The notes beneath the pieces were generated by a model. It did not search any database and had not been told where the DNA came from. It saw only the letters and a list, made by a program, of their open reading frames with translations. A DNA stretch of 64,000 nt from a virus. Of the stretch, positions 34,282 through 62,799 are shown in pieces; the first letter of the stretch is position 1, and every line of letters starts with the position of its first letter. A program made the translations under genes and the position numbers. Location: positions 83,623 to 147,622 of the IMG/VR virus record IMGVR_UViG_3300028920_000035. The stretch is one strand, 5' to 3'.

Positions 34282-34763
34282 AGGTCGGGGACGTCGTTGA
34301 GTACCAAAAGGTCTTGTACCGCGTTTTGCGGGCCAACCGCCTGGTGCACGCGATGGTCCTTGCTCCGTGGGGCTCCGACAACATCGAGGTCGCCGACAAC
34401 GACCCCGAAGTGAAGGAACTGCACAATCCTGCCGACAAGTGGCCCGTGGCCATCGTGATGCTTAAGCATCGCGCGGGCCCCATGCGTGAGGTGATGCGCC
34501 GGGGGAAGGCTTTGACGCCGCTGCTAGAGTGGATGCCGGGGGACCCCTTCCGTCCAGGAGGCGCCATCTTCCTGAATCCCGATCTACACCTGAAACGAGG
34601 CGAGGTCCTCACCGTTCGCCACCAGGACGGGACGACAAGCAGGGTCTCCATCAGCGCGGGGTTCGGGACCGTCGCGCAAAAGCGCAAAGGCATACTCAAG
34701 AAGCCCAAGCTCAAGCCCAACGCCTTCGATCGCATCTGGGCAGGTGAGGACGACGATGACTAG
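34278..34763 (+). CDS. Hypothetical protein with C-terminal PNAFDRI-acidic motif
   Basis: GTGA coupling; ends KPNAFDRIWAGEDDDD. Confidence 0.7.
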   Translation: MKVGDVVEYQKVLYRVLRANRLVHAMVLAPWGSDNIEVADNDPEVKELHNPADKWPVAIVMLKHRAGPMREVMRRGKALTPLLEWMPGDPFRPGGAIFLNPDLHLKRGEVLTVRHQDGTTSRVSISAGFGTVAQKRKGILKKPKLKPNAFDRIWAGEDDDD

Positions 34764-35388
34764 GCGTCTTCCCTTGGCAACTGAGCATGCCTTCTCTCAC
34801 GCCCGTCAGAGCCGCATAAGCGAGGTCTCGAGGTTCGAGGCCCAACTGCACCAGCAGCGCGCTGAAAAGACCTTGAGGACTACGTGCACACGCGGATGCC
34901 ACCATTGTTGCTACTACCCTATGACATGCTCCCTCCTGGAAGGGATCGAGCTGCACCATCACTTGAAGGGGAAAGGGTTGTGGTCAGCGCCGTTGCAGAA
35001 GGCGTGTGTGATGCATGTGGGCAAGACTTGGGCCCTCCCGCATCCGGTCTGGCTTCTGAGCATGATCCCCTGCCCATTGTTGCAAGAAGGGGAGTGCCTT
35101 GCCTACGACGCGCGGCCCGTCGATTGCCGCACCATTTGGGCCAAAGGGGACCCCCACTACTGCCACCCCCACCGGTTTTCGGTGGAGACCCCCTTCGTGG
35201 ACCGCAAGCAGGTGCAGGCAGAGGTGGCCCGGATCGATGATGCAGCCCTTCAGCGATATCGACTTGTATACATACCGCTCCCAATCAGCAAAGCACTACT
35301 GCTGGCCGAGGCTCTCGACCGCGGAGAGCTCGAACTGGAAGAGCTGGGGGCGAAGCTTTATGCTGACTACCAGAAGGCCCACCAATGA
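34756..35388 (+). CDS. YkgJ/CxxCxxCC-family cysteine-cluster protein
   Basis: CTRGCHHCC ... CPLL..GECLAYDARPVDCR. Confidence 0.85.
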   Translation: MTRRLPLATEHAFSHARQSRISEVSRFEAQLHQQRAEKTLRTTCTRGCHHCCYYPMTCSLLEGIELHHHLKGKGLWSAPLQKACVMHVGKTWALPHPVWLLSMIPCPLLQEGECLAYDARPVDCRTIWAKGDPHYCHPHRFSVETPFVDRKQVQAEVARIDDAALQRYRLVYIPLPISKALLLAEALDRGELELEELGAKLYADYQKAHQ

Positions 35389-35684
35389 AGCCCACCTGTG
35401 TCGTCTGCAACCAGCCCGTGGATATCGATCATTGTCAGCGCCTGCCGCTCAACAATGAGGAGCGATCAGTCATCCAAGCTGTCGAGGGAGTGGCTCCCCA
35501 GGAGCTATACTGCTGTCATCCGTGCTGGCGGGTGTTGCAGGACCCCAACGCCGCTAGCCAACTTATGAAGGGCATTTACCAGCAGTCAGCACAGCTAGCT
35601 GGCGTGCCCTCGCATGAAGCTGAACGGCAGGCGGACGTCTACCACGCCCGCCTGCTCGAACGCACCAAAGCAAGGAACACATGA
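35385..35684 (+). CDS. Small Zn-finger protein
   Basis: CVVC...CHPC; ATGA coupling. Confidence 0.6.
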   Translation: MKPTCVVCNQPVDIDHCQRLPLNNEERSVIQAVEGVAPQELYCCHPCWRVLQDPNAASQLMKGIYQQSAQLAGVPSHEAERQADVYHARLLERTKARNT

Positions 35685-36370
35685 AGCTCAATGTTGACCA
35701 AATACATCAGCACCTCGACCGCATTCGCCATAAGCAGGGGGAGGAAGCCTTCAAAAAGGCCAGGTGCAACTTCGCGCGGTCCCTGATCCTCGCTGAGGGT
35801 GGGAGTCAGTTCCTGTCGGATTCTCTCGGCTTCAAGCCAGACGAGCTGGCCAAGCTGGAGGCCGAAGCTCGGGAGATGATGGCGGCGAAGAGCCCCGAGG
35901 CTGCAATGTCGATGATGCTGAAGCAGCAGCTCCCTCACTGCAAGACACAGGCGCAGTTCAATCTCTTCATGGCAGCCTTCGAGGCTCTTCGGGCAGTCAT
36001 GGATGCCACCTTCGCAGGCAACGAGGTCACGGCGTCCAAAGCTCGTGAGCTGCTGAACCGTATCATCGACCAAGCTGCTGGGGTGACTCGGGCCGTTAGT
36101 CAGCTTGAAGACGAGCCTGAGGCCGCGCAGGGGGCGCTCGCCGAAGAGCTGAAGAAAGAGCCCATCGAGTTCCATGAGCATGACGAGCAGCGACAATTGC
36201 TTGCCGAGCTATCAGTGATCCAAGATCGGTGTGGGCTCGACCAATGGTATGCGGAGACTCAGTCTCGGAGGGAGGGGATTCGGGACCAGGCCCTGCGCAA
36301 TGAGCTGTACGACGAGATTCGGCGTAAAAGGGGCACCCTGACAGCAGTTTTTGGCAATCAGTCGAACTGA
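35681..36370 (+). CDS. Hypothetical helical protein
   Basis: 229 aa, AAGGA SD, ATGA coupling. Confidence 0.7.
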   Translation: MKLNVDQIHQHLDRIRHKQGEEAFKKARCNFARSLILAEGGSQFLSDSLGFKPDELAKLEAEAREMMAAKSPEAAMSMMLKQQLPHCKTQAQFNLFMAAFEALRAVMDATFAGNEVTASKARELLNRIIDQAAGVTRAVSQLEDEPEAAQGALAEELKKEPIEFHEHDEQRQLLAELSVIQDRCGLDQWYAETQSRREGIRDQALRNELYDEIRRKRGTLTAVFGNQSN

Positions 36371-36388
36371 CCGGTGTATTGGTCGGTT

Positions 36389-37174
36389 ATGGAAAAGGAC
36401 CGACTACTTTACACCATCTGCTACATTGATGTCGAGACCACGGGCCTCGATGAGGATGTGCATGAGATCACCGAGATAGGCGCCATTCGCGTGAACTACC
36501 CGCGAGACTTCTTCGACGGGGGCGAGCCCGAAGAGGTCAGCCGCTTGTCAGTCAAGGTCAAGATCAAGGGCGTCGTCGACCCCAGCGCAGGCTATCTGAA
36601 CCATTTCGACTCTGAGGTGTGGGCTACGGAAGGGGTCGAGCTGCACGAGGCCATGTACAAACTCTTCCCGCTCATCAAGGAGGCCAACCTTGGTGGTTGG
36701 AACGTGGACTTCGACCGACGACGCATCTGGAATGCTTTCCGTCGGTTCAACTGGCAGTGGCCCTCCGGAACCGGCCACCGTTTGCTGGACGTGCAGTCAC
36801 TCGCTCGACCTTTCATTGCGGCCTACTTCCGAGAGGAGAGGCACTTGCGCAAGATCCGGTTGGAGGAAGTAGCCAGAGCGATGAAACTCGTCGACCGCGA
36901 GAATGAAGACCAGCTGCACTCGGCTCTGTTCGACTGTGAGCTGGCTTGGAAGATCAACGACCTGCTGGCGCATGCCTACTACCGAGGAACTCTTGAAACA
37001 GGGTTGATCACTTTACCGTCACAATCGGCGACCCCTCTCCCAGTAGAAAATGTACCTGACCCTTCAGCCCCGCCCCCAGTAGAAAATGTACCTGACCCTT
37101 CAGCCCCTCCTGATCGGGACACCCTTGCATCCGGTCTTACACCAGTTGTAGGTAAGCCTGCGACACTGCCGTGA
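36389..37174 (+). CDS. DEDDh 3'-5' exonuclease (DnaQ-like)
   Basis: IDVETTG, EIGA, GWNVDFD, LDVQ, HSALFD; CGGTG-TATTGG-6 nt-ATG (motif at 36372). Confidence 0.9.
   Translation: MEKDRLLYTICYIDVETTGLDEDVHEITEIGAIRVNYPRDFFDGGEPEEVSRLSVKVKIKGVVDPSAGYLNHFDSEVWATEGVELHEAMYKLFPLIKEANLGGWNVDFDRRRIWNAFRRFNWQWPSGTGHRLLDVQSLARPFIAAYFREERHLRKIRLEEVARAMKLVDRENEDQLHSALFDCELAWKINDLLAHAYYRGTLETGLITLPSQSATPLPVENVPDPSAPPPVENVPDPSAPPDRDTLASGLTPVVGKPATLP
37039..37107. repeat. 36-bp-period tandem duplication (PVENVPDPSAPP x2)
   Basis: cccagtagaaaatgtacctgacccttcagcccc twice. Confidence 0.9.
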
Positions 37175-37310
37175 GGCCGCTCCCTTCCATTCAGAGGACT
37201 AGGCGTCCAGGAGCCACCTGGGTGGGGGCCTGTCCAAGGCCGTCTGCATCGGGTGTGGTTGTCAAGGTATTTGGTCAGCCACACAGCACCCAAAATCGGA
37301 CACAAGCGAA

Positions 37311-37324
37311 TGATTTTCTTGTGG
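37311..37324 (+). promoter_or_regulatory. T-rich YTRT motif (putative late promoter)
   Basis: TGATTTTCTTGTGG-13 nt-ATG; similar sites at 4659, 28515, 50251, 40581, 2833 and on the minus strand at 5727, 48197, 51987. Confidence 0.5.
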
Positions 37325-37337
37325 CCTCGCTTCATGC

Positions 37338-40300
37338 ATGGGTATCGCCGCGCGGGTTGCCGCTCGCTACAAGAGCAAGAAGACGACCGACAAGGGCAAC
37401 GTCATCTACGAGTATAGCACTGCTCAGGTCCAGCATCGCAACCGCGAAAAAGCTAAACGCCTGGAAAAGCTGGAGTCCAACGTCACCAAACTGCGGACTC
37501 AAGTTGAGAAGGACCTCAGCGCCAAGGACGTCAAGAAGCGGCAGACCGCACTCGCGGTGGGCCTCATTGATCATACGTTTGAACGAGTGGGGAACGATGA
37601 AAGCGCTGACGAAGGTCACTTTGGCGTCACCGGCTGGCAGAAGAAGCACGTCACGTTCTCGGGCGGCAAAGCGACCCTTCAATACATCGGCAAGTCGGGG
37701 ATCGAGCAGGAGAAGACCGTCACCGACCAGAAGCTAGTCACCGAGCTGAAACGGGCCGCAGACGCCTGTGGGGACGATTCAGACTGCCTGCTGGCGGATG
37801 TGAGCGCAGAGGACGTCAACGCCTATCTCAAGCCCTACGATGTGACAGCCAAGGACCTGCGGGGCTTCCATGCCAACCGGGTCATGCGAGAGAAGCTCCA
37901 GACCGCGCGCAAGGGTCAGCTTCCCAACGACAAGAAGAAGCGAGAGGAGAAGCTCAAGGCTGAATGGAAGAAGGCGCTTGAGGCCACGGCCAAAGCGGTG
38001 GGGCACGAGCCTTCAACGCTGGGTAACCAGTATCTCGTGCCGGGACTCCAGGACGACTTCATGAGGGACGGCGTGGTCAGCGAGCCCGGCAGCAAGACCG
38101 CAGGCGTCGTCAAGCTCGACCTCGCGTGGGTCGAGAAGATGCGCAAGGACTTCTTGACCCTGCTCAAGAACATCCCCCACATCAAGACCTTCAAGGAGGC
38201 CCATCGAGTCCGCGAGGGCCTTCGGGTCTACCGCGAACAGTTCGACAAGCTATTCCACGAGCGGTTCCTCCGGCACACCCTCAAGTACGACTACGAGGAC
38301 TACGGGATCAGCGAGGACTACGCCAAATACTACACCAAGCAGTTGGGTACTCCGTCGTGGGACTTCTACATCGCGCTGGCAGAGATGCCGATCGGCTTCG
38401 TGGACGACTACTGGGACGAAGACCGCCTGATGGCCCGCTTCACGCAGGAAGCCCCCAAGTGGGAGACTCGCCTCAAGCGCAAGGCCCAGAAGTTCTGGAA
38501 GGTACTCCGAGACGTGCTCCAGGACTTCAAGAACCGGGAGCGGGAGATCCAGGTCAAGACCCTGGACGTGGAACAGGTGACGCTCGAAGGGTTCCGCGTC
38601 CAGGTGCGGGGGTTCGACCCGAGCGACGACATTGACGTCGAGTCACTGGAGGTCTTCAAGAAGGGGCTGAGGATCTACCGACGCAACGCGGCGGCTCGCT
38701 ACCCCCGCTTGCTCAAGGACCAGGTGCCGATCGTCTACGACTGTGAAGTGAATCTGGACAAGGGCGGGACCTACAGTCACAGCGGCCTGATCACGTTCTA
38801 TGCCTCGGCGGTCATCAAGGAGCCCCCCGCTCGTGCCGCCCACATCCTTGCTCACGAGATGGGGCACCACGAGTGGCGTCTGCTCGATGGGAAGGCACGG
38901 GAGTTCTGGGAGACGGCCATCGCAGGCGACTACGGCGACATCGACCTAGCCGAAGTTGTAGCCAAGTGGCCCAGGGGGGCGTGGGCCTTCGACTTCACCA
39001 GGTACATGGCCGACACCGACCCTGTACTAGCCCTTCAGATGGAGGGCCTCGTCCACAGCCAGAACCACGAAGAGCTGAACACCAAGGAGGACTTCCAGGC
39101 CCTGTTGAGCAGCGGCCAGCGGACGCTGCGGGTGCCCAAGACGCCCATCACGGGGTACGCCAACAAGAACCCCCAGGAGGCGTTCTGCGAGGCTGTGGGT
39201 CTGCTGGTGGCCTACGGACCCCGGGCCCTCCACGAACGCGTACGCGGCTGGCTGGGCATCATCCTGGGCAACGAGGTCAAGGTCGCGGCCCGCGTGGCCG
39301 CCCGCTACCGCGCGGCCTTTGACGGCTCGACGCCGTTCGGACCGATGGACCCCGACAGCGTGATCAAGCGGGCCACCCTGGCCCATCGCGTGGCGCGCCG
39401 CTTCATCGCCGACAGCTACGGCGACCCGAAGACCTACCTCGACGCGATGACCGAGGCGCTCCGACGCTACCAGATGTACCGTGACCTCTTGCCGACGATG
39501 CGCAAGGCAGAGCGGTGGGTCGACCAGAACCCGGGCGTGCCCCCGGGCACCGCCCTGACGGGGGACGGCGAGCTGGACAAGGTGCTGCACAACTTCCGGA
39601 TGTTCCTCGTGAAGTATGCCTACGCCGTCCAGGCCATGTATCCGACGATGTGGCGCGCAGGCGGGTCCAAGGTCTTCCTTGCGCTGCTCCAGCAGTACAG
39701 CTTCTCCGACCGGCGCCTACGGTCAAGGGTCGAGCAGGGGGCCAAGTTCTATGGCAAGACACGCTCCAGGAAGCCTCGGCCCGCCCAGTCTGTAGCCGTC
39801 TTCGACAAGGCGTTCACCCAGTATCTGGAGCACCTCGAAACCATCCGCGATGCACTGAAGAAGGGCGTCCCTCATGGTGCTGAAGGTGCAGCCCAGGCGA
39901 AGATCCCCGCGGGCCCCTTCACCCTGGTCAACACGGGCGGCTTCGACGACAAGACGATGGATCTCGTCGCCAAGCTCGCCGTCAAGGCCGCGGGCCTGCT
40001 CAAGCAGCACGGGTACGGCCGTGCCGTCTACGGCGACATCCACATCAGCAACACGGTGGGGCGGTCGTCAAAGGTGTTGGCATTCTACTCGGTCAACACC
40101 GACGAGATGTTCGTTCGGGCCAACCTCAAGGGGAAGTTCGACAGCGCGCTTCACACCATCCTGCACGAGCTGGGGCACCGGTACGAGAAGTTCGTCGCTG
40201 CGAACGACATCCGCGCCATCTACCGCCGCCTGAGCAACCAAACGTCGGACCAGCGCCGGTCCTCCGACCTGAAGTACCCCAAGGAGGGGGAGACCGCCGT

Positions 40301-40571
40301 CGAGCGCGGCAAGACCTTCGTCGTGTCAGGCACCGAGTACACGGGACGTGGCGTCCGCGTGAATCTCAGGCTTCAGGACGACGCGACCAAGCAGTTCCAC
40401 ACGACAATCGACGGCTGGTACGCGATGACCGGCCAGGTCAGCCCCGCAGGCGCCTTCATCAGCAAGTACGCCCGCACGGACCCGAGCGAAAACTTTGCGG
40501 AGATGGTCGCCCACCACTGTCTTGGCACGCTGCCCCAGGAGCAAGTCGAGCTGCTCGAAGCGATCATCTGA
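37338..40571 (+). CDS. Polyvalent protein: type IB DNA topoisomerase plus two HExxH zincin-like metallopeptidase domains
   Basis: Topo IB: ERVGN, FGVT, YIGKSG, VNAYL, TAKDLR, VGH...NQYL. Then HEMGH...ITGYA..NPQEAFCE and HELGH...ISKYA..DPSENFAE. RVAARY motifs at the N-terminus and between domains. Confidence 0.85.
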   Translation: MGIAARVAARYKSKKTTDKGNVIYEYSTAQVQHRNREKAKRLEKLESNVTKLRTQVEKDLSAKDVKKRQTALAVGLIDHTFERVGNDESADEGHFGVTGWQKKHVTFSGGKATLQYIGKSGIEQEKTVTDQKLVTELKRAADACGDDSDCLLADVSAEDVNAYLKPYDVTAKDLRGFHANRVMREKLQTARKGQLPNDKKKREEKLKAEWKKALEATAKAVGHEPSTLGNQYLVPGLQDDFMRDGVVSEPGSKTAGVVKLDLAWVEKMRKDFLTLLKNIPHIKTFKEAHRVREGLRVYREQFDKLFHERFLRHTLKYDYEDYGISEDYAKYYTKQLGTPSWDFYIALAEMPIGFVDDYWDEDRLMARFTQEAPKWETRLKRKAQKFWKVLRDVLQDFKNREREIQVKTLDVEQVTLEGFRVQVRGFDPSDDIDVESLEVFKKGLRIYRRNAAARYPRLLKDQVPIVYDCEVNLDKGGTYSHSGLITFYASAVIKEPPARAAHILAHEMGHHEWRLLDGKAREFWETAIAGDYGDIDLAEVVAKWPRGAWAFDFTRYMADTDPVLALQMEGLVHSQNHEELNTKEDFQALLSSGQRTLRVPKTPITGYANKNPQEAFCEAVGLLVAYGPRALHERVRGWLGIILGNEVKVAARVAARYRAAFDGSTPFGPMDPDSVIKRATLAHRVARRFIADSYGDPKTYLDAMTEALRRYQMYRDLLPTMRKAERWVDQNPGVPPGTALTGDGELDKVLHNFRMFLVKYAYAVQAMYPTMWRAGGSKVFLALLQQYSFSDRRLRSRVEQGAKFYGKTRSRKPRPAQSVAVFDKAFTQYLEHLETIRDALKKGVPHGAEGAAQAKIPAGPFTLVNTGGFDDKTMDLVAKLAVKAAGLLKQHGYGRAVYGDIHISNTVGRSSKVLAFYSVNTDEMFVRANLKGKFDSALHTILHELGHRYEKFVAANDIRAIYRRLSNQTSDQRRSSDLKYPKEGETAVERGKTFVVSGTEYTGRGVRVNLRLQDDATKQFHTTIDGWYAMTGQVSPAGAFISKYARTDPSENFAEMVAHHCLGTLPQEQVELLEAII

Positions 40572-40599
40572 CGGTTCCATCTATGCCCCGCCCTTGTGC

Positions 40600-40989: not shown

Positions 40990-41015
40990 TTTCTTGAACG
41001 TTTCAGGATAGAATC

Positions 41016-42560: not shown

Positions 42561-42597
42561 TCCACACTTTGAGGCTGGTCTAAAGCCCCGTGAACAC

Positions 42598-42855: not shown

Positions 42856-42922
42856 CCGCCGCCCTCACTCAAGCAGTAAGGGCCGCTCTTGCGGGGGTTC
42901 CTGTAGAAAACATAGTACTTAG

Positions 42923-43786
42923 TCATTCTGGTCTCCCAACGATCACCAGTTCGCCCACGGGACCACGGCGGTCCCCCTTCGAGTTGATCGCTCGTCGCGC
43001 CTGGATTTCGTGCAGCTCAAAGCCAGCGTAGAGCCGGCGGACGAGTTCGCAGTCAGAGTTTGAGGCTACGACGGTCACTCCTCGTTCCACGAGTCGCCGG
43101 CACGCTGCGACGAGCCTCGACTGGTCGTCAAGCGTGAACCCACCCTGGGTGTACCCGTCGCTGAAGTTGCTGGTTGGCGAGAGGGGCACGTAGGGTGGGT
43201 CGAAGTACACGAGATCGCCCGGGCGCGGCCACTCGCAGATTTCCCAGAAGTCCCCAAGGTGAATCTGGGCCCAGCGGTTCAGCTCGCGAGAACAGGCGTG
43301 AATGGTCTCTTCCTTGTAGACCAGCGGTGGCTTCTGGACCCACCTCTCCCCCTTGGGGTCGCCGTAGGGAACGTTGAACTTCCCCTGCTTGTTGACCCGC
43401 CACAAGCCGTTGAAGCAGGTCTTGTTGAGGTAGATGAACCGGATGGCGCGAGCCACGGGGTCGAGGTCCTCGGGGTCGTAGCCCCGAAGCATCATGTAGG
43501 TGTCCTTGTCGACGGTGAGGCCCTGGAGGCCGCGCACCAGCTCGTCAGGGAAGTCGCGCACGATCTTGTACGTCGTGATCAGGTCGGGGTTGACGTCGTT
43601 CAGGACCGCGTGCTCGAACCGCTGCTCGGTCGCGAGGTGAAAGAAGAGGGCACCCCCGCCGAAGAACGGCTCGTAGTAGGTCCGAATCGTCTCGGGGAAG
43701 AACGGCAGGATCTTGTCCAGCAGACCGCGCTTGCCGCCGGCCCATTTGAGGAAGGGGCGGGCACCCTTGGCTTTCGTGCTAGCCAT
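42923..43786 (-). CDS. dam: Dam-family (D12) DNA adenine methyltransferase
   Basis: PFLKWAGGK, YYEPFFGGG, YLNKTCFNGLWRVN..G.FNVPYG, YFDPPY. Confidence 0.93.
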   Translation of the reverse strand: MASTKAKGARPFLKWAGGKRGLLDKILPFFPETIRTYYEPFFGGGALFFHLATEQRFEHAVLNDVNPDLITTYKIVRDFPDELVRGLQGLTVDKDTYMMLRGYDPEDLDPVARAIRFIYLNKTCFNGLWRVNKQGKFNVPYGDPKGERWVQKPPLVYKEETIHACSRELNRWAQIHLGDFWEICEWPRPGDLVYFDPPYVPLSPTSNFSDGYTQGGFTLDDQSRLVAACRRLVERGVTVVASNSDCELVRRLYAGFELHEIQARRAINSKGDRRGPVGELVIVGRPE

Positions 43787-44453
43787 CTTCGTCCATCATC
43801 TCCCACAGGCGCTGGGGTTGGTCGTCCTCCAGCTCCTTCACGATGTCGGCCACAGGCTTGTAGCTGCGACGGTGCTGCGGCGTCGGCCCCAGCTCCCGGA
43901 GCTTGGCCTTGTGTTCGGGGGTGACGTAGCCCTTGTTCTCGGCCCAACCGTAGCCCGGAAACTCCTTGCCCAGCTTGACCAGCTCTCGGTCGCGCCAGAC
44001 TTTCGCCATCACGGACGCCAGGGCACACTCAGGGACGTCCATGTCGGCCTTGGGTAGGCTGATGACGGGGTGGTCCAAACCCAGCTCCAGAAGTCCGTCG
44101 ACGACCACCAAGGCGGGCACCTCGTCGGGGACGGCTGCGATGGCTGCGGCAAGGGCGTTGCAGAAGGCCATGCGTCTCGCCGTCGCGGGGCCCATCTTGT
44201 CGACCTCCCACGCCTCATAGCGGCAGACGGTGGTGAAAACCTCGGGATGCTCAGAGTAGGCGCTCCACACAGCCTCGCGCTCGGCCTCCGTCATCTGCTT
44301 GGAGTCCCGTACACGTTCGTCGTCCCAACCTGTGGGCGCGGCCACGGCTCCTACGGCCAGGGGCCCCGCCATGCAGCCCCAGCCGACCTCATCCGCGCCA
44401 ACGACCCACCCTGGGTGGCCGTCCACTCGGGCGTGGCCTGTCTTTCGTCTCAT
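43779..44453 (-). CDS. rnhB: Ribonuclease HII
   Basis: VGADEVGWGCMAGP, RDSK, VVDG, KAD, ALASVMAKVWRD, NKGY, HRRSY; CGGTG-TAACGT-7 nt-ATG (44471-44461). Confidence 0.92.
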   Translation of the reverse strand: MRRKTGHARVDGHPGWVVGADEVGWGCMAGPLAVGAVAAPTGWDDERVRDSKQMTEAEREAVWSAYSEHPEVFTTVCRYEAWEVDKMGPATARRMAFCNALAAAIAAVPDEVPALVVVDGLLELGLDHPVISLPKADMDVPECALASVMAKVWRDRELVKLGKEFPGYGWAENKGYVTPEHKAKLRELGPTPQHRRSYKPVADIVKELEDDQPQRLWEMMDEDG

Positions 44454-44472
44454 GCTGGTCACGTTACACCGT

Positions 44473-50859: not shown

Positions 50860-50861
50860 CC

Positions 50862-51968
50862 TCAAGCACACACTTTGTCGCGCCACGCCTGAAGCAGCGC
50901 CTTGCGCGTCTCGGGCCCCACGCCATCCTCGTTGATGCCCGCGAGCATCTGGAAGATCTCGACCGCTTGCCCTGTCTTGCGGCCCCAGATGCCGTCAACA
51001 CCATCGTCCTTGGGGCCCGAGCGTCCGAGGTCATAGCCCATGTCAACCAGGACCTGCTGAACCTCATCGGTCTCATAGAAGTCGGGCTCACTATCATCCG
51101 TCGGGGGGGCAACGTTCGCCCACTCCTTCAGCTCGGAGGCGAAGTCGGGAAGGTCGACCTCGAAGAGGCGCTCGATGACCGGGCGGATCTTGTCGTACCG
51201 ATGAGGGTAGATGCTGATGCGAGGGCCAAAGGTCAGCTCCTTCAGGATGGCGATGCACCAGTCGGGACTCCACTTGGCCGCTCCTGTGCTTTTGACGGCC
51301 TTCTGGAGGCCCTTCGAGGCGTGGCTGGGATTGTTGGCCGCGAACGACAGAAACGCCGCCCTGAGGGCTCCCACCCACTTCTCGTCGGGGTAGCCGTCGA
51401 ACAGCACCCGTTGAGCATCCTTCGTCGCGAAGGACCGCACTCGTTGCGCCGTGTAACTCACCTGAATGCGGTCGGCCTCTGGCTGGGCCAGACACTCGGC
51501 CATGCACTTGCACCAAAGGCGGGCGTGGGCCTTGGACACCTCGTCCCACGAGCCCCGCTTGCCGTTCGAGTTGAGCAGGAAGGTATGCTGCTGCTCAAGC
51601 AGCTCATCAACCTCGTTGCTACCCCGGAAGAAGCGCCACTTGGTGCCGCTTTTGCGCCGGAACCCAACCTTACTAGACACCATGGCCGGGCGTAGGGCGT
51701 CGAGCAGACCCTCGTCTTGGGTGGCAATGGCACCTAGGAGCTTCGAGGTCAGGAAAAAGCTTGCCTCACACCACTGAAAGTAGCCGACCGAGATGATGCA
51801 TCGGTCGTACATGTTGACGGCGTTCCCTGACCCACCCTCAGTTTGGGTAATGACCGCCATGATGCGGTCCTCTGCCGTTGGGTTGGCAGGTAGGCTGTAC
51901 TTGACAGTCCCGGGGGTCCACGGACCTTCATAGTTGGAATACTTGCCCCATTTGAGAATGATGCTCAT
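50862..51968 (-). CDS. Endolysin-like protein: lysozyme-type N-domain plus PG_binding_1 domain
   Basis: TEGG..NAVNMYD..ISVGYFQW; VQQVL..MGYDLG..GVDGIWGRKT..AV..FQ....DGVGPET. Confidence 0.75.
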   Translation of the reverse strand: MSIILKWGKYSNYEGPWTPGTVKYSLPANPTAEDRIMAVITQTEGGSGNAVNMYDRCIISVGYFQWCEASFFLTSKLLGAIATQDEGLLDALRPAMVSSKVGFRRKSGTKWRFFRGSNEVDELLEQQHTFLLNSNGKRGSWDEVSKAHARLWCKCMAECLAQPEADRIQVSYTAQRVRSFATKDAQRVLFDGYPDEKWVGALRAAFLSFAANNPSHASKGLQKAVKSTGAAKWSPDWCIAILKELTFGPRISIYPHRYDKIRPVIERLFEVDLPDFASELKEWANVAPPTDDSEPDFYETDEVQQVLVDMGYDLGRSGPKDDGVDGIWGRKTGQAVEIFQMLAGINEDGVGPETRKALLQAWRDKVCA

Positions 51969-52021: not shown

Positions 52022-52375
52022 TTAATCAAGGTCCCCCAGGCGCTCGAACGCCGTGGGTAGCTCTTTAGACTCTTTGCGGATGGCGTTGCACACGACATTT
52101 GTCAGCATGCCAAGCCGTTGAGGGGGCTCCTGGAACCGCACAAGGCCGTCGACGATCCGCTCTTGTTGCGACAGGGATTGAGCCAAAATCTGGTTTGCCC
52201 TGTCAAGAGACTCAAAGCGCTCTTGTTGCGCGGCAATTTGTTCTTTGAGAGCGTTGACCTGTTCTTGGAGTTCGACCGCGCACCGGAAAGCTCGGTGCTT
52301 GAACCAAACCGACACCATAATCGCAAGCAGGGCTACGGTGCAGGAAATGACCGACCATGACAGGCTTTCTAACAT
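52022..52375 (-). CDS. Membrane-anchored coiled-coil protein with C-terminal PTAFERL motif
   Basis: N-terminal TM, heptads, ends LPTAFERLGDLD; CGGTG-TATGTA-7 nt-ATG. Confidence 0.65.
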   Translation of the reverse strand: MLESLSWSVISCTVALLAIMVSVWFKHRAFRCAVELQEQVNALKEQIAAQQERFESLDRANQILAQSLSQQERIVDGLVRFQEPPQRLGMLTNVVCNAIRKESKELPTAFERLGDLD

Positions 52376-52430
52376 TGCCCCCTACATACACCGAGCCGGC
52401 CTGATAAAGCACTCATTGGCCGGGCCAGTC

Positions 52431-53795: not shown

Positions 53796-53800
53796 TCATC

Positions 53801-56242: not shown

Positions 56243-56245
56243 TTC

Positions 56246-56893
56246 ATGGCATTCATCGGCATTAAGCTACCTGAGGGCGCAGCCCGAGTGCTGCACAGGA
56301 TCGATGGCATCCCTGGCGACCGGGTTCCCCGAGACCACGCGCACGTGACCATGGTTTTCTTGGGGGATGAAGTCCCGTTTACAGTCCTGAATCGTGTCAT
56401 CGAGGTGATTGCCAAGCTTGGTGAGACGACACAGCCCTTCCCCTGCTACACGAGCTTGGTCTCAACGTTCCCCTCCGATTCCGATTCCGACTCCGACACG
56501 GTGCCCATCATCTGTCGCGTCAACTCAAACGAGCTGCACGACCTGCAAGCTCGTCTGTGCAAGGAACTCGACAAGGCGCGGGTGCCCTACTCAAAGAAGT
56601 ACCCCGAGTACAAGCCACACACGACACTGGCCTTTGCACCGTCCAAGAATGCCGAGGTCTGGCACGATCGAACCATTCCTACGGTGAGTTGGGGCGTCAA
56701 CGAGATCACGCTGTGGGGTGGGGATGAGGGGGATGAGCGATTGGTCGTCACCGTGCCCTTCGCTCTCAAGCTTGAACTTCCCAAGCGGGTGGCCGCACGC
56801 TACCGGTTCAAGCATCTTCATCATCTTCATCCTTGCCACCATCTTCCTGGTCGTCGCTGCTGGATACCTCTTCATCGTCCCCGAGCGCATTGA
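56246..56893 (+). CDS. 2H phosphoesterase (2'-5' RNA ligase/Acb1-like fold) followed by an RVAARY motif
   Basis: Two HxT motifs (HVTM, PHTTL); AFIGI N-terminus; LPKRVAARY. Confidence 0.85.
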   Translation: MAFIGIKLPEGAARVLHRIDGIPGDRVPRDHAHVTMVFLGDEVPFTVLNRVIEVIAKLGETTQPFPCYTSLVSTFPSDSDSDSDTVPIICRVNSNELHDLQARLCKELDKARVPYSKKYPEYKPHTTLAFAPSKNAEVWHDRTIPTVSWGVNEITLWGGDEGDERLVVTVPFALKLELPKRVAARYRFKHLHHLHPCHHLPGRRCWIPLHRPRAH

Positions 56894-57316
56894 CCACCGA
56901 TTCTCCGGCATCATACCCCTCACCATCGCTGCCATGTTCGCCTACTTCTTCGTCTGGCGTGATGCCCAGCGCTTGCTCCTCAAGCGCTAACGGGATGGTC
57001 GAAACCCAGTAGACGTCGCACTCACCGCCGCGAGTCGCTGCGGTCTCGCTCTCCAACACATAAGTCTTACCCTTCAGGCTACGAATCTTCCCGGCGCCTT
57101 CGAGCCACGCGATCCCCTGGCGCAACGTGTTGTCACCATACCCGTGTTGCTCACCCCAACGGTCAAGATCGTTCCAGGTTCGAAGAGTGTTGTCGAGGAA
57201 GACCCGGATCGGGCGAGTAGCCTTGACCCACCCCGGATGGTTCGAGGGGCTGGAAAAGTTGAAGCCACCGCGACAAGGCGGTTGTCGTTTCGTACTGGCC
57301 ATTACATCATCACTGG

Positions 57317-57508
57317 GTGGGCCCTTTAGATTACACTGAACTAGCGGAAAGGGTTGCTATGATCAGCACCCAATGTAAGGACCCCGCAGTCAGGCGACAC
57401 GCAAAGAGAGTTGAGTTGCTCATGTACGAGTTGGCGGCCGATGCCCGGGAGTCCTACCCGACGGCCTGGGAAAGACTTGCCAACGACTCGTCGACGATGG
57501 ACACTTAG
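57317..57508 (+). CDS. Small protein with C-terminal PTAWERL motif
   Basis: ...SYPTAWERLANDSSTMDT; start uncertain. Confidence 0.5.
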   Translation: MGPLDYTELAERVAMISTQCKDPAVRRHAKRVELLMYELAADARESYPTAWERLANDSSTMDT

Positions 57509-57511
57509 GCC

Positions 57512-58147
57512 ATGCCCCGTGAAGACGACCTCCCGCTACTAAACCCAAGCATGCTAATGAGCGTGGCAGGGGCGCGGGAATTGGAGGCCGCTGAGGCTTT
57601 CGCAGGACGGCCCCAGGGGGTCCAACTCTACGCGGACAGCCATGACCGTCTGCGAGCCATCGACGACCAAGGTGCTGAAATCTCCCTGGACGACCTAGAC
57701 GCGGGTAGTGTCGGAGAAGCTGACCCCGCCTTGGAGCAGATGTTCATGAACGGGGTACCAGAACAGTTCCGCGAGGCACATGCCAGGACCTCGGTCGATG
57801 CGATGCCGATTCAGTTTGACGCGGAGTTCAGTGAACCTGTGGGTGGTGCATCCACGCCCAACGAACGGGTGCGGTTCCAAGTTGGGCGAGAGAGCCCACC
57901 GGCCCGCCCCTTCTCTGGGGGCGTGCAATCCCAAGACGGGCTCGTAGTCTCTCGTATCAGGCCCAATGGCCAAGTCGAGCATGTCCCCCGCCCCCGAATC
58001 TCCGACGGCGCTGGGCGGCCCCTGGCGCCCGCTGTGCCTCGTATAGGCGGCTCTCAACCTCTCCCGACTCGAACGGCCGCCCAAAGCGCCCCGACACCCG
58101 CCGCCGTAGTAGGACCGTCGCTGTGGGAGCGCCTGGCGGACGACTAG
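57512..58147 (+). CDS. Largely disordered protein with C-terminal PSLWERL motif
   Basis: 211 aa, ends GPSLWERLADD. Confidence 0.65.
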   Translation: MPREDDLPLLNPSMLMSVAGARELEAAEAFAGRPQGVQLYADSHDRLRAIDDQGAEISLDDLDAGSVGEADPALEQMFMNGVPEQFREAHARTSVDAMPIQFDAEFSEPVGGASTPNERVRFQVGRESPPARPFSGGVQSQDGLVVSRIRPNGQVEHVPRPRISDGAGRPLAPAVPRIGGSQPLPTRTAAQSAPTPAAVVGPSLWERLADD

Positions 58148-58455
58148 TTCGGGGGGTCACTCTCTTTGCTAGGAGCCACGATCACTGAAATCTTCGCGCC
58201 GTTTTGGCGACTCATCTCGGCGTGGATGGCTCTCCCCAAACGAAGACTCACGTGCTGGAAGGCCAGTTTGGCGGTTTCGAAGTCCTCAACCAACTTGTGC
58301 AGATCGGGGTGGACCTCAGAATCACTGTCGTCGTGAACACGTTGATAGACGCTCGCCAACGCGATGATCAACTCCCGCCGGTTTACGTAGTCAGTAGCAT
58401 TCTCGATCCTCTCGAAGACCTCGAGGAGCTGTGGGGGGTATTGAGGGTCTGGCAT
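58144..58455 (-). CDS. Hypothetical helical protein
   Basis: About 103 aa, follows the CHAP gene. Confidence 0.55.
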   Translation of the reverse strand: MPDPQYPPQLLEVFERIENATDYVNRRELIIALASVYQRVHDDSDSEVHPDLHKLVEDFETAKLAFQHVSLRLGRAIHAEMSRQNGAKISVIVAPSKESDPPN

Positions 58456-58457
58456 GG

Positions 58458-59144
58458 TCAAGCGTTGGCGGTTCGAGCCTTCCAGTCGGCTTCGAAGTCG
58501 GCCTCAGCTCGAACCTCGTCCAGCATCTGCTGGGTAGTGAGAGCCACGAGGCCTTTGAGGTAGTCGATCTGCCAGGATTTGAGCAGATGTTTCGGGGACT
58601 GGCTGTTCTCGCGTGGGTAGGCAATGAAGCCCAGGAGTCTGGAGTGGTTGAAGGGGGTCCACTCGATACGGGTAGCATTGATGCCAGTAGGGTTGGGAGC
58701 CTCGTTGGCGCCGATGTTCTGGTAGTGGCTCCCGTCCACCGACATCACACGGTCCACATGCCCCCACCAGGCGGTTTCGGGGCGTCCGGGGATGCTCCGG
58801 TCATAGATGGCGAGATCGCCTTTTTCGGGCAGCCAGACACCTGCCAGGACCTCGCTCTTTTCGTGCCACGTGGCCGACGCAATCGAATCGCACATCAGCT
58901 CTTTGGCCCCGGCTCGGTACTGGTGGGGAAGGTTAGGGGGGCTATCCACGCCCATCTCCAGGAGTGTTTGCGCGGCACACCAGCTGGCGAAGGCCGCACA
59001 ATGATTACCCTTCTTGATTCCGAGGATCTTCCCACCCCGCACACAGTTTTGGAAGTACACGGCCACGTCCACGGCCGTGGGTGGGTTGACTCGGGCCATT
59101 TCTCGCTCAGCCACTTTCACGCACATCTCGCCAAACGTCATCAT
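58458..59144 (-). CDS. CHAP-domain amidase/peptidase
   Basis: NHCAAFASWC (catalytic Cys), PEKGDLAIY, WGHV (catalytic His), NIGAN; GGAG SD before ATG 59144. Confidence 0.8.
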   Translation of the reverse strand: MMTFGEMCVKVAEREMARVNPPTAVDVAVYFQNCVRGGKILGIKKGNHCAAFASWCAAQTLLEMGVDSPPNLPHQYRAGAKELMCDSIASATWHEKSEVLAGVWLPEKGDLAIYDRSIPGRPETAWWGHVDRVMSVDGSHYQNIGANEAPNPTGINATRIEWTPFNHSRLLGFIAYPRENSQSPKHLLKSWQIDYLKGLVALTTQQMLDEVRAEADFEADWKARTANA

Positions 59145-59200
59145 CTCCGATCCTTTCCGCTGGGTCCCTGAAGCTACTCTACTCCTCCGAACCCAGACAC

Positions 59201-59551
59201 TCAAACGCCGTCGTGACCATCGTCGAGAAGTTGAAAGGCATTGGGCCGGTCCAGGATACGACTCAGGGCCCGCCCGAGCGCTACAGGCAAAGTCACACAC
59301 TCGCGGCACCCTGTACCCTTGCAAGCGGGGTCTTCCCAGTTGCAACCGTAGGGGTCCTCCCCTTCCCCGTGGTAATGCCACCCCAACCTGAGCAGCCAGT
59401 GACCGGGGTGTTGGGGATCCGTGCGCGGGTCCCCAACACCGCCTCGTAACTGGGTCTGAAGGGTCTGAAGGGTCTGAAGGGCTTCTTGCAATCTGGTGGT
59501 CACAATATCGAGCCTTGCATCGAGGTTAGCACTTCGCTCACCATACCCCAA
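59201..59551 (-). CDS. Hypothetical protein ending PNAFQLLDD (start uncertain)
   Basis: C-terminal part of the tracked 59201..59890 ORF; 9-bp x3 repeat (LQT). Confidence 0.4.
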   Translation of the reverse strand: MGYGERSANLDARLDIVTTRLQEALQTLQTLQTQLRGGVGDPRTDPQHPGHWLLRLGWHYHGEGEDPYGCNWEDPACKGTGCRECVTLPVALGRALSRILDRPNAFQLLDDGHDGV

Positions 59552-59594
59552 TCGAGGATCTTTCGATGAGCCTACCCTCCGGTAGAGGAGAATC

Positions 59595-59759
59595 GTGCAG
59601 CTAGACCTTAGCCAACTGGGATCAAAAGAACTGAAGGACCTCTCACTGAAGGTAAAAACCGAGCGGGAACGACGGGGCAGGAAGAACCCCTTGAACCACC
59701 CCCCGCCCCAGTGGTCCATCCCCAAGAAAGCGGTCATAGGTGATCGACAGCAGCCATGA
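59595..59759 (+). CDS. Small protein (54 aa, absent from the ORF track)
   Basis: GAGGAG SD, GTG start, ATGA overlap with the next gene; VQLDLSQLGSKELKDL...ERERR. Confidence 0.55.
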   Translation: MQLDLSQLGSKELKDLSLKVKTERERRGRKNPLNHPPPQWSIPKKAVIGDRQQP

Positions 59760-60187
59760 TACTCGCCGCCAAGGCCGAAAGCGTTACTGACGCCTTCTCC
59801 TACCTCATTGGGCAGGGGGTCTTGGGTGTCATCTGTGTTTTGCTGATCATCGGCCTGGTCTATCTCTACAAGGACTGGAAAACGGCCCACGAGAAGCTGG
59901 CCAAGGCCGAGACTCAGGCCAAAGCTGACCGTGCAGAGGACCAGCGGCGGATGGCAGAGATCCTGAGCAACATCACGTTGTCATCGAGCGAGCTGGCACG
60001 TGAATCAACTCGTAGCAACGACTCGGTGAAGGCGGCACTGGACACACAGTCGTCGGCATTCGACCGTCAGGAGAGAGCGTTCGTTGAGCAAGCACGTACC
60101 CTTGACGGGATGAAGCGTTCGCTCGACGATCTGGAACGCGAGCAGGTACACCTGACGGCCATCGTCAAAGCGAACGGCAAGAACTGA
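59756..60187 (+). CDS. Holin-like TM plus coiled-coil protein
   Basis: QGVLGVICVLLIIGLVYLYK TM followed by heptads. Confidence 0.6.
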   Translation: MILAAKAESVTDAFSYLIGQGVLGVICVLLIIGLVYLYKDWKTAHEKLAKAETQAKADRAEDQRRMAEILSNITLSSSELARESTRSNDSVKAALDTQSSAFDRQERAFVEQARTLDGMKRSLDDLEREQVHLTAIVKANGKN

Positions 60188-60420
60188 TGCTGAGGGATTT
60201 ACTGAGGTGGATCATGGCAGTTTGGAACCGCATGTTCGGGAGGTCCATACCCATCGTTGAAGCGCCCTCCAAGACCGAGATGGACCATGCCAAACTCGCG
60301 TTCGAGCGCGAGATGAAGGCCGCTCTCGGGGCTGATCAAGAGCTAAAAGCGGCGGCCGACCGCTTGCGGGAGAATCGGGAACGGAGGCAGGAAGCCCTCC
60401 GCAAGTTGGAGGAGACATGA
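60187..60420 (+). CDS. Small amphipathic/coiled-coil protein
   Basis: TGATG coupling. Confidence 0.6.
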   Translation: MLRDLLRWIMAVWNRMFGRSIPIVEAPSKTEMDHAKLAFEREMKAALGADQELKAAADRLRENRERRQEALRKLEET

Positions 60421-61058
60421 GCAAGTTCAAGGAGCCCCAGTTGTCCACGAAGGAGATCGCAGCGGCCCGCGCTGAAGTCAAAGCTGCGGTGGGAGGCTTG
60501 AATAAGCCCCCCAAGCCGGAGCCTCAGGACCCCGTAAATTCCGCCGAGGCAATGAGGGAGGGAGCTGAAGCCTTTCTCCAGTCGCTCGACAGCATCGACA
60601 TGACACTCTTAGTGTTGATCAGCCGATTCCGCCGGTCGAGCCACATCCAGCTCGTGGTTGGCTCCCTGATGGCGGTCTCACTCCTCACGCTCGTCTATGT
60701 CACCTTTGTGCTGGTCGACATGGCACATGGGGTCAACACTCTAGTCAAGGATCAGAAGCAGGCCACGACCAAACTCGCTGAAACACGGACCAAGGTCGAG
60801 GAAACGCTATCCAAACTCGCCACCACCCAGAAAGAAGTCAAAGAAACCAAGGAGAGGGTCGAGCAGGTAGCTGAAGCGACTCCCAAGGTCGAAATCGACG
60901 AGGAAACGGGTAAGGCCAGCGTCGTTGTTCCCTTCAGCAAGAGCACTTCTGACCAGGGCCCGCCGCCGGTCCCCGCGCCAGCATCTGCACCCGCTCCGGC
61001 ACCACCGCCGCGTGGGGTTCGGGTCCCGTTGGGTATTGACGCGGCCGAAGCGCTCTGA
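60417..61058 (+). CDS. Single-pass membrane coiled-coil protein (spanin-like)
   Basis: Central TM, coiled coil, Pro-rich tail; GGAGG SD. Confidence 0.6.
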   Translation: MSKFKEPQLSTKEIAAARAEVKAAVGGLNKPPKPEPQDPVNSAEAMREGAEAFLQSLDSIDMTLLVLISRFRRSSHIQLVVGSLMAVSLLTLVYVTFVLVDMAHGVNTLVKDQKQATTKLAETRTKVEETLSKLATTQKEVKETKERVEQVAEATPKVEIDEETGKASVVVPFSKSTSDQGPPPVPAPASAPAPAPPPRGVRVPLGIDAAEAL

Positions 61059-61264
61059 AACCTGCGTGCTCACACGGCGTAGTCTTCCAAGGATGGGGTC
61101 CAGCGATTCGCGAGACCTCGATTGGCGTCCACCATGAACAGGTGCCCCGTTGCTGCCTCATACCAGAACTCCACATCGCTTGGGGCGCCCAACTTCACGA
61201 CGACCACATACTGGCCAGAGTAGAGACTCAGTTCGAGGTCAGTGATTCAGTCCCACCCCCGTCC

Positions 61265-61942
61265 TCAGGGGGTCGTCCTCAGCAGCTTGTCGAGGCGTTT
61301 GATCTCCTGCCGGATCGGCTCGACGTGCTTCAAAAGCTCGGGCTGGACCGAGCGGTTCAGAGCATCCCTCCAGTCAGGGTCCTTGTACGGCTTGCGCTTT
61401 TTCATGGCCGCCAGAGCTTTCTGCATGAGAGAGAAGTCGTCGACATCGTGAAGGTCCACGACCTTTTTGACGCCCCAGTGGTCCACCAGGCACCAGTCGA
61501 GCTGCTTACCCCGAAGGTGCCCCCACTCGCCGTTCTCGTCGCAGCGGTCGATGCGGTCAGAAAGGCGCGTGAGTACGGGCCACTCACCGTCGCTGTCGTA
61601 GGAGATGAACGACTTGGGCCTGACGAACCACAGCAACGTCGGCTTGGGCTCGGTGTACCGCTCATAGGTCAGCATCCGCTTGCGCTCGCCGATGCGCAAG
61701 GCGATCCACTTGCACGCGGTAAAGGCATAGAACCGTTCGGCCCCGCTGGCGTTGCCGTCGAATCCGACCTGGAGCTTCTGGTGCGCGTAGGTGGGGCCTG
61801 TCTTCGGGTTGCTGATGTAGCCGCTGCCGACCGTGCCCTTGGGGTACAGCTTGCCCACGGGGCGCCAGTGCTTCCTGAGCACCTTCATCAGGTGGCGGCG
61901 GTCTTGAGCAGACTTGCAAACGGTGGAGACTGAATACCCCAT
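61265..61942 (-). CDS. Hypothetical protein
   Basis: 225 aa, GGAG SD. Confidence 0.65.
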   Translation of the reverse strand: MGYSVSTVCKSAQDRRHLMKVLRKHWRPVGKLYPKGTVGSGYISNPKTGPTYAHQKLQVGFDGNASGAERFYAFTACKWIALRIGERKRMLTYERYTEPKPTLLWFVRPKSFISYDSDGEWPVLTRLSDRIDRCDENGEWGHLRGKQLDWCLVDHWGVKKVVDLHDVDDFSLMQKALAAMKKRKPYKDPDWRDALNRSVQPELLKHVEPIRQEIKRLDKLLRTTP

Positions 61943-61946
61943 GGCT

Positions 61947-62267
61947 CTACTCCAGCTCGTCTTCTTCGACTATCAGCTCGAAGGACGTTCGTGGTTGAGT
62001 TTCGCTCCGGCGTAGGAGCACGTTGACCAGAGCCTGCCGCGCCTGCTGGGGGGTGCAGTCACGGTCGGGAGACCACCGCTCAACGAGGATGAAGGTGGCC
62101 CCCCTCAGGTCTCCCCGGGCCACCCTGTCAAAGTTGCAGCGGGCGTACCCATGCTTCGAGCATAAGCCGTTCAAGCAGTTCCTACAGCCCTCTACGGGTG
62201 TACCTCCTTCAAAGCTATCGGGCGGGATGAGGCCCGTTGCCAGATGGGCAGAGAACTCCCTAGACAT
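61947..62267 (-). CDS. Small Cys-rich protein ending PRTSFELI-acidic
   Basis: CRNCLNGLCSKH; GAGG before ATG 62267. Confidence 0.55.
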   Translation of the reverse strand: MSREFSAHLATGLIPPDSFEGGTPVEGCRNCLNGLCSKHGYARCNFDRVARGDLRGATFILVERWSPDRDCTPQQARQALVNVLLRRSETQPRTSFELIVEEDELE

Positions 62268-62799
62268 CCTCGAACCCCGCGAAGAGGTCCTTGTCGGGGT
62301 CTGGGGCGTAGTCGTCGCCTTCGTCAAGACGGTTCCAGTACGTACGGAGGGGGTGGGCATTTTCTTCAGCTACGATCAGAGGGGGCATGACTAGGGTGCC
62401 TTCGCCAAGGACCAGGGCCGAAGCAAAATCATGGCGAATCGTTCGCAATTCCAGGCCACAGCCTTGGAGATTGGCAGTTTGCTCGGTCGCCAGCCAGGGC
62501 TTGTTGGCATTGGCTGATGGCACCTTGGAAATGAGCACTCGACGGGCGTGGGATCCATGGAGCGTGACGCGGGCCCCACGCTGAGCCCAGGGAGGCCACT
62601 GTCCGATCTTCTGAATCTCCCACCAGTTGACACACTCCTGCTGGAACGTGTGAAGGGGGACCGAATCGGTCTTGGTCTTTCCTGCATACCAGATGACCGC
62701 CTCGCCAGGGGTCAAGCTTATCAGCTCGAAACGCGAGAGTTTCTGATTTTCGCACTCAAAGCGGCCGAGATCGCCCTTGCGCCACTTGCCCTTCCTCAT
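62260..62799 (-). CDS. Hypothetical protein with RTYWNRL-acidic C-terminus
   Basis: GGAGG SD, ATGA coupling. Confidence 0.6.
   Translation of the reverse strand: MRKGKWRKGDLGRFECENQKLSRFELISLTPGEAVIWYAGKTKTDSVPLHTFQQECVNWWEIQKIGQWPPWAQRGARVTLHGSHARRVLISKVPSANANKPWLATEQTANLQGCGLELRTIRHDFASALVLGEGTLVMPPLIVAEENAHPLRTYWNRLDEGDDYAPDPDKDLFAGFEDV

Follow-up and report, generated by a model that had tools for sequence, protein, structure and literature searches.

The DNA analysed here is a stretch of 64,000 nucleotides, called the window below, which forms the final 64 kb (positions 83,623 to 147,622) of the 147,622-bp virus record IMGVR_UViG_3300028920_000035. Its subject is a short tail, referred to as the tag, that recurs at the C-termini of otherwise unrelated proteins. 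The consensus of the tag is P-[TSN]-x-[FWY]-[ED]-[RH/L]-[LI] followed by acidic residues, and it lies 3-21 amino acids (aa) ahead of the stop codon. A six-frame scan with regular expressions, combined with direct translation of the window, located seven to nine copies (Table 1). Seven had been listed in an earlier note made from the sequence alone, and every one was recovered at its listed position; the eighth, absent from that list, came to light through gene calls made on the parent contig. Between 34 and 63 kb of the window, 7 of 39 called genes carry a tag, or 8 of 39 if a weak copy at the end of RNase HII is included. Most carriers are small and have no detectable DNA-enzyme domain; few proteins of the window or the record gave Pfam or PHROG matches at all. 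The last residue of the window tails is D, T, V, E, G or P. In one carrier, the 62260 protein (genes are named here by their lowest coordinate), the tag is not terminal, being followed by a 16-aa acidic/aromatic extension that ends ..DLFAGFEDV.

Two further proteins, RNase HII and a beta-class methylase, had been put forward as bearing weaker copies, and only the first withstood examination. The Pfam RNase_HII domain covers residues 2-173 of the 197 of the RNase HII, so its tail PQRLWEMMDEDG lies beyond the catalytic domain; the tail is also partly conserved, since the RNase HII of a complete relative (44% identity) ends EEDPLSFLDDG, keeping an acidic-hydrophobic tail but not the core. The methylase tail RENFDLAMELGE is present, but it has Ala at position +3 (counting from the aromatic residue of the core as position 0) and finds no support in any orthologue; it was rejected as a tag copy.

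The window belongs to a larger whole. The 147,622-bp record is contained in a 188,558-bp ENA contig, its parent, and a CheckV completeness of 31% for the record indicates that it represents about one third of a megaphage genome, the full size of which would be roughly 450 kb. The structural genes, a volactin-family actin gene, a p97-like ATPase gene and clpX all have relatives at ∼50-60% identity in IMG/VR, on contigs that range from 100 to 510 kb and include six complete genomes (398-513 kb). By these sequence relationships the window is assigned to a clade of uncultured megaphages. In the phage collection no cultured close relative was found, the best matches to the ATPase being 26-29% identical. 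One complete relative, G025 (also L069; IMGVR_UViG_3300037297_000066), has 437,331 bp with terminal repeats and 607 genes, is syntenic with the record, and served for much of what follows.

Table 1. Tag copies and candidate reader genes in the window
Feature	Coordinates	Strand	Description
Tag ..KPNAFDRIWAGEDDDD	34716-34763	+	ends 161-aa protein 34278-34763; no Pfam or PHROG match
Tag ..LPTAFERLGDLD	52057-52022	-	ends 117-aa protein 52022-52375
Tag ..YPTAWERLANDSSTMDT	57458-57508	+	ends 49-aa protein 57359-57508; gene called on parent contig
Tag ..GPSLWERLADD	58115-58147	+	ends 211-aa disordered protein 57512-58147
Tag ..RPNAFQLLDDGHDGV	59245-59201	-	ends 178-aa protein 59201-59737; gene called on parent contig
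Tag ..PRTSFELIVEEDELE	61994-61947	-	ends 106-aa Cys-rich protein 61947-62267; gene called on parent contig
Tag ..LRTYWNRLDEGDD	62349-62311	-	within 179-aa protein 62260-62799
Tag ..LTAWDRLRDDLDPFEEPP	63892-63945	-	eighth copy; 152-aa gene 63892-64350 (parent-contig call), start past the window end
Weak tag ..PQRLWEMMDEDG	43779-43817	-	ends RNase HII (43779-44372)
ClpX	27056-28318	+	candidate reader 1; full-length, C4 zinc-binding N-domain, VGF loop at the ClpP-docking position
p97/Cdc48-like AAA+ ATPase	20458-22041	+	candidate reader 2; two-tier, with degenerate D1-like and active D2-like tiers (predicted)
392-aa partner gene	22041-23219	+	start codon overlaps the ATPase stop codon; translationally coupled

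Enrichment and conservation of the tail

The concentration of the tag at C-termini, which the earlier note had proposed as a check, was confirmed at two levels. Among the 122 proteins of the record, 7 occurrences of the core plus acidic residues fell in the last 25 residues and 5 among 43,467 internal positions (Fisher p=3e-6), and none of 1000 local shuffles reached the C-terminal count observed. That pattern had been chosen post hoc, after the data had been seen, and the independent test was therefore provided by the relatives. In G025, all three-residue patterns (∼34,000) were enumerated in the last 20 residues and compared with the protein bodies; without any prior choice of motif, T.W.R ranked first, with 20 tails observed and 1.27 expected (p=1e-17), and was followed by PT.W, W.RL and WER. 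The carriers in this genome amount to ∼27-30 of the 607 genes, with 19 of 141 (∼13%) in the region between 42 and 130 kb; one of them is a radical SAM enzyme (77260-78243) ending in ..KTAFERLLEEDD. Elsewhere, six or seven tails were found within 7.3 kb of L005, a contig from the same sample as the window, eight on the 31 genes of the 20.8 kb covered of L007, a distant 163-kb contig, and two or three on each of three other contigs. Overall, the tag is carried by 4-18% of genes. A second C-terminal pattern of G025, 'IT..I', was rejected as another tag because it comes from what looks like a 13-member paralogue family of proteins (174-210 aa, ending ..EIT.AI..), 12 of which are encoded at 157-192 kb on the minus strand, the outlier lying at 88 kb on the plus strand.

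That the carriers are unrelated, as had been claimed, was borne out. The bodies of the window carriers showed no mutual similarity (best E-value 0.08, in a tiny database), and a single paralogous pair was found among the 30 carriers of G025. The codons used for equal tail residues differ between the window copies, as they do between those of L007. With unrelated bodies and differing codons, the likeness of the tails lies at the protein level.

The tails are also kept by orthologues. Orthologues at 31-65% identity retained the tail while the linker preceding it diverged. The 34278 protein has an orthologue (P0003, 65% identity) that ends QPNAFDRIWEGDDED, with the basic linker ahead wholly changed, and another in G025 (34% identity) that ends NPTAFDRIMQDDSFDEGEE. 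In L005, the orthologues of the 57359 protein (43% identity) and the 59201 protein (54% identity) end YPTAWERLAKEPGARDT and RPNAFQRLDDLDDDV, respectively, and a 133-aa protein unrelated to the 52022 protein ends IPTAFERLGED, the alignment between the two being limited to the tail. The 61947 orthologue in L007 ends PRTRYEKLVEDDLF, which is the tag version proper to that lineage (see below), while orthologues of the 62260 protein end IRTRWDIILDDDEFDDYDDWL in L007 (31% identity) and SRSRYAVVSGGDDPF..DLFGDGST in L008 (34% identity).

The broadest sample came from the 57512 family, in which a profile search gathered 94 cluster representatives, nearly all of them tag-ended. Their ends follow P-[ST]-x-hydrophobic-[ED]-[RH]-[LI], often continued by G-P-[DS]-x-[FL]-D-D, and mostly have ..DD last. 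The 57512 protein itself is disordered, with an Atlas predicted local distance difference test score (pLDDT) of 0.44, and the family has an invariant central ..PNERVRFQVGRESPP.. motif. The search with the family profile was negative against the IMG/VR records tried first; the wider one returned G025 and weaker members. IMG/VR searches with the tailed 34278 protein, its untagged fellow 61265-61942 and the 57512 family yielded nothing useful, the GTDB genome contigs searched gave no matches, and one apparent relative (L001) was discarded as a spurious match due to low complexity.

Several features of the carriers and their surroundings are recorded here in their own right. The 57512 gene converges on the gene of a small protein (58144-58455, 103 aa) that is acidic and helical, and the two stop codons overlap or abut; the same layout is seen in L005, L007 and L010, and in L016 as judged by reading frame; in G025 the two genes lie on the same strand. 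The locus is flanked upstream by a LigT/Acb1-like 2H phosphoesterase and downstream by an endolysin. The endolysin of L005 (L005:2967-4913, 648 aa) combines PG_binding_1 and Peptidase_M15_4 domains with faint intein and LAGLIDADG matches; at the corresponding position the window has a CHAP-domain protein (58458-59141), and a PG_binding_1 protein lies at 50862-51968. The 52022 protein has a hydrophobic N-terminal segment, the only one among the carriers, directly followed by K/H/R residues, and a coiled-coil-like middle (weak coiled-coil-type Pfam matches only); the positive-inside rule would put its tail on the cytoplasmic side. A 189-aa protein (29296-29865) contains ..RRFAWDRLCEVYEV.. 23 residues before its stop codon, with no acidic end, and might be a degenerate or internal tag copy.

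Lineage versions and predicted structure of the tail

Although the tag is recognisable throughout the clade, its wording differs from lineage to lineage, as judged from tails of 11 relatives. The version of the window lineage is [TN]-[AL]-[FW]-[ED]-R-L, that of G025 is T-x-W-[ED]-R-[LI], that of L007 T-R-[WY]-E-R-[LI], and that of G021 and G026 T-R-F-[ED]-R-[ILV]; five genomes (G017, G024, G014, G016 and G019) share a His-type version, [TN]-L-[FYW]-D-H-L. At positions -1, 0 and +2 the tails of any one genome are alike, to a degree beyond that of shuffled tails, whereas those of different lineages are not ([TN]-L-F-D-H-L versus T-R-F-E-R-I, for instance). When tails were shuffled among genomes in 5000 permutations (G025 being excluded for the figures quoted), position -1 was identical in 0.69 of within-genome pairs as compared with 0.30 after shuffling (0/5000), and position +2 in 0.75 as compared with 0.47 (1/5000). 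Positions -2, +1 and +3 were conserved everywhere and showed no genome effect. Orthologous carriers follow the genome in which they reside: in the 61947 family TSFELI becomes TRYEKL, and in the 62260 family TYWNRL becomes TRWDII and then SRYAVV. A concerted, lineage-specific change of this kind in unrelated carriers is what one would expect of many clients keeping pace with a single reader.

The anatomy of the tail is consistent with a peptide that folds at the end of a flexible arm. The linkers ahead of the tag are rich in Pro and basic residues and are not conserved. An AlphaFold2 model of the 57512 protein, built from an alignment of 59 family sequences, placed a helix precisely over the tag, at residues 204-209 (block pLDDT 84), with a pLDDT of 53-57 for the linker ahead of it; the tag helix is predicted to make one-and-a-half to two turns behind this floppy linker. 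In the rules established for helix capping, a Pro, an N-cap residue and an acidic residue three positions further on make a classical helix start, and on these rules P-[TSN]-x-x-[ED] reads as such a signal, the N-cap being Thr/Ser/Asn and the acidic residue Glu/Asp. One face of the helix would then display both the aromatic residue and, three positions on, the Leu/Ile. The tails close with an acidic end, and in many relatives a second hydrophobic residue precedes a final Asp-Asp.

A proposed docking explanation, its candidate readers and its alternatives

Taken together, the recurrence of the tail, its C-terminal enrichment, its conservation in orthologues, its clade-wide spread and its concerted lineage-specific change suggest that it is probably a portable docking peptide, an address label for one putative common reader that co-evolves with it. 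Otherwise unrelated and mostly small non-structural proteins would bind this reader through their tails; what we infer is that they bind, and to which reader. The earlier note had proposed a docking motif for a single hub, and this proposal is partly supported: selection at the protein level, persistence in orthologues, unrelated carriers, the modelled helix and the concerted change all fit it. Among the hubs it named, a phage sliding clamp or single-stranded-DNA-binding protein (SSB) was looked for and not detected. Domain searches of G025 detected neither a DnaN (PF02767) nor a T4 gp45-family (PF02916) clamp, though a divergent clamp is possible, and no SSB domain was found in either G000 or G025.

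Two unfoldases encoded in the window are the readers tentatively preferred within the docking explanation, and it is possible, though far from assured, that one of them is the partner sought. Their genes border on the tagged region and belong to the core of the clade. The first is ClpX, found in 19 of 21 related records, including six of six complete ones; it aligned with E. coli ClpX (phmmer E=2.5e-92) from a point inside the N-domain, and its N-terminal sequence reads CSFCG...CDRC. The second is an AAA+ ATPase that had been thought Ycf46-like and is better described as a two-tier p97/Cdc48-like protein. A Pfam AAA domain was recognised at residues 278-406, the PDB sequence matches were to NSF and the D2 tier of p97, the AlphaFold2 model (pLDDT 78) aligned over its full length with p97/Cdc48/Rix7 in Foldseek, and the N-terminal 230 residues were modelled as an alpha/beta D1-like AAA tier. 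Orthologues of 41-61% identity occur in 20 of the 21 records. Its coupled 392-aa partner gave no Pfam or PHROG match, and in G025 an orthologue of the partner (38% identity) occupies the equal position.

In the first option, the zinc-binding N-domain of ClpX would grip the tail, as it grips the peptide by which the adaptor SspB is tethered through its C-terminus; in the second, the p97-like ATPase would read it together with its partner. Either way, the tagged proteins could be handed over to be unfolded or degraded at a set time, or could themselves act as adaptors that bring targets of their own. A more specific version, which we regard as distinctly unlikely, makes the tagged early proteins modular adaptors whose bodies bind differing host or phage proteins while the tail plugs into ClpX or the p97-like unfoldase. 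The phage ClpX would then work with the ClpP of the host in a programmable, targeted destruction or remodelling of proteins, tag and reader co-evolving in each lineage.

A number of points weigh against an unfoldase as the reader. Neither ATPase ends in the tag, and the p97-like protein has no recognisable peptide-binding N-domain of the MIT or double-psi barrel type. The His-type tag corresponds to one clade of the ATPase tree, a single switch, and because it arose only once on that tree, co-variation has no power to choose and singles out no reader. The tails end in D/E/G; acidic C-terminal ends block direct recognition by ClpX of the ssrA type, and the peptides known to tether to the ClpX N-domain (LRVVK of SspB, LREI of UmuD) are basic, not acidic. 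Since the tails end in this way, the earlier idea of a direct ssrA-type ClpX degron is unlikely. Tails on enzymes such as RNase HII and the radical SAM protein fit recruitment at least as well as degradation, and a reader belonging to the host would account for the lineage versions equally well.

Both unfoldases have peculiarities of their own. Orthologues of the p97-like ATPase share a C-terminal [ST]-x-x-F-[KR]-x-[VI] (for example ..SFKFVSGGG and ..SFRVVNGS), unlike the tag, which might be a docking tail of that ATPase. In two complete relatives (G021:C1:280076-282373 and G026:C1:277131-279434) ClpX matches fall in two pieces of one open frame of 777-795 aa, which suggests an insertion of ∼360 aa after residue ∼120, possibly an intein.

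If the tail does not serve a phage protein, it might dock on a hub of the host, such as the beta sliding clamp, SSB, RNA polymerase, a chaperone or a protease adaptor, at which the early proteins would be concentrated; the versions would then follow the hosts. We consider this unlikely, yet it is the alternative that survives best. The carriers are early-region proteins, of a kind that usually acts on the host, and the lineage versions accompany large differences in G+C content (44-60%) that suggest different hosts. RNase HII, a client of the clamp in archaea and eukaryotes, bears a weak copy, and the complete relative G025 has no detected clamp, SSB or TPR_12 domain to offer in place of a host protein. 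The core, however, matches neither the bacterial clamp motif QL[SD]LF, nor the PIP box, nor the tip of SSB, and a highly conserved hub of the host would not be expected to demand switches from R to H or from A to R at set positions of the tail.

The tail could also be a signal for localisation, either to a volactin-type filament or to a replication or assembly compartment, by analogy with the C-terminal helices of ParR and arcadin-2, which insert into the hydrophobic groove of actin-like proteins. The grooves of actin folds are known to be bound by short amphipathic helices at the C-terminus, behind a disordered linker, a form that the tail resembles, and the phage does encode a strong member of the volactin family (L011:5265-6308; Pfam E=1.7e-68), with 47-63% identity in most of 80 IMG/VR relatives and ∼36% in the seven most distant. 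This is very unlikely: the actin gene lies within the block of virion structural genes, while the carriers are in the early, non-structural region, and no gene for a compartment shell was identified. Beside the actin gene there is a protein of ∼390 aa (L011:7784-8977, 397 aa) ending ..GRNNx[FY]ERIx, an ending found in nearly all relatives (about 35 IMG/VR loci; ..NNSFERIG in one form), which was considered as a tag copy and rejected. It has no acidic end and ignores the lineage versions: FERI is retained even in G017 and G024, whose tags have ..DHL. More likely, a structural protein the size of a sheath protein has a conserved C-terminus here.

That there is no specific reader at all, the capped helix and its run of acids being a generic stabilising, solubilising or anti-degron ending that spread among small proteins by its usefulness, appears highly improbable. 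The acidic ends do vary in length and sequence, and acidic C-termini are generally known to block ssrA-type recognition. From a generic ending, however, one would not expect a defined core of seven residues in 94 clusters, the top rank among all C-terminal patterns at p=1e-17, or switches at equal positions in all the carriers of one genome. A merely historical likeness with no present function, through diverged paralogues or a mobile 3' DNA cassette, is hardly credible and was rejected on comparison of codons, flanks and bodies, for although one neighbouring pair of carriers in G025 is paralogous (43% identity) and the tag Thr codon is ACC in 8/8 copies in L007, the Arg, Leu and Pro codons and the flanks differ between copies, the bodies are dissimilar, and tails persist in orthologues of 31-34% identity while linkers decay.

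Should the docking explanation hold, dozens of proteins that have no assigned function would be sorted into one functional set, and the tail would provide a peptide bait with which to capture the machine at the centre of early infection in these uncultured megaphages. The presence of ClpX and a p97-like unfoldase among the phages' own genes may find its explanation as well. In a review of jumbo phages (PMC7824862), the only roles considered for phage ClpX are those of a possible translocase or an aid to assembly, and no tail motif is mentioned. Terminal docking peptides common to several proteins are known for a handful of replication proteins and for adaptors of proteases. Our literature searches returned no description of this motif, and in the literature searched no tag was found that is carried by 4-18% of the genes of a giant phage, conserved across its clade and switched in concert.

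Comparison with known systems

Short C-terminal peptides that bring unrelated proteins to one partner are known from several systems, each of which was compared with the tag. The ssrA degron terminates in non-polar residues (..LAA-COOH) and has no acidic ones at its end, while window tails end ..DDDD, ..DLD, ..ADD, ..ELE or ..EDG. The acidic tails of T7 gp2.5 and gp4 and the D-D-D-I-P-F tip of SSB are aromatic-containing docking tails of replication. In these the aromatic residue comes last, whereas in the tag it sits in the helix, 6-25 residues before the acidic end, and window tails never end in an aromatic residue; the direction proposed for the tag is, moreover, from many clients to one reader.

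Clamp-binding tails, namely the bacterial QL[SD]LF, the archaeal and eukaryotic PIP box (of which RNase HII is a classic client) and the tails by which T4 gp43, gp33 and gp55 bind the gp45 clamp, resemble the tag in being terminal short motifs on unrelated proteins that meet at one hub, here a proposed one. They differ from it in sequence. Measured against the bacterial motif (QL[SD]LF / QLxLxL), the tag has no conserved Gln, and its hydrophobic residues lie at 0 and +3; no copy has the paired aromatics of the PIP box (Qxx[LIM]xx[FY][FY]), the RNase HII reading QPQRLWEMMDEDG; and a T4-type tail would require a clamp of the kind that the PF02916 and PF02767 searches did not detect in G025.

The MIM1 tails of ESCRT-III proteins, which are read by the MIT domain of the AAA+ protein Vps4, are likewise C-terminal amphipathic helices with acidic residues and an R-L pair, carried by several proteins. 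The MIM1 helix is longer and has three Leu positions, unlike the tag, and the phage ATPase has a degenerate D1-like tier instead of the three-helix bundle of MIT.

The XB motif of SspB (LRVVK) and the LREI of UmuD dock on the zinc-binding N-domain of ClpX. These peptides are basic and few per genome, whereas the tag is acidic, is found on 4-18% of genes and bears the signature of a capping-box helix. Like the tag, they are short, follow a flexible linker and carry an Arg within a pair of hydrophobic residues that are spaced by three positions; the tag, too, is a terminal peptide on such a linker, in a phage that encodes a ClpX with a zinc-binding N-domain. In both cases, as proposed here for the tag, unrelated proteins would reach a single AAA+ machine through their last few residues.

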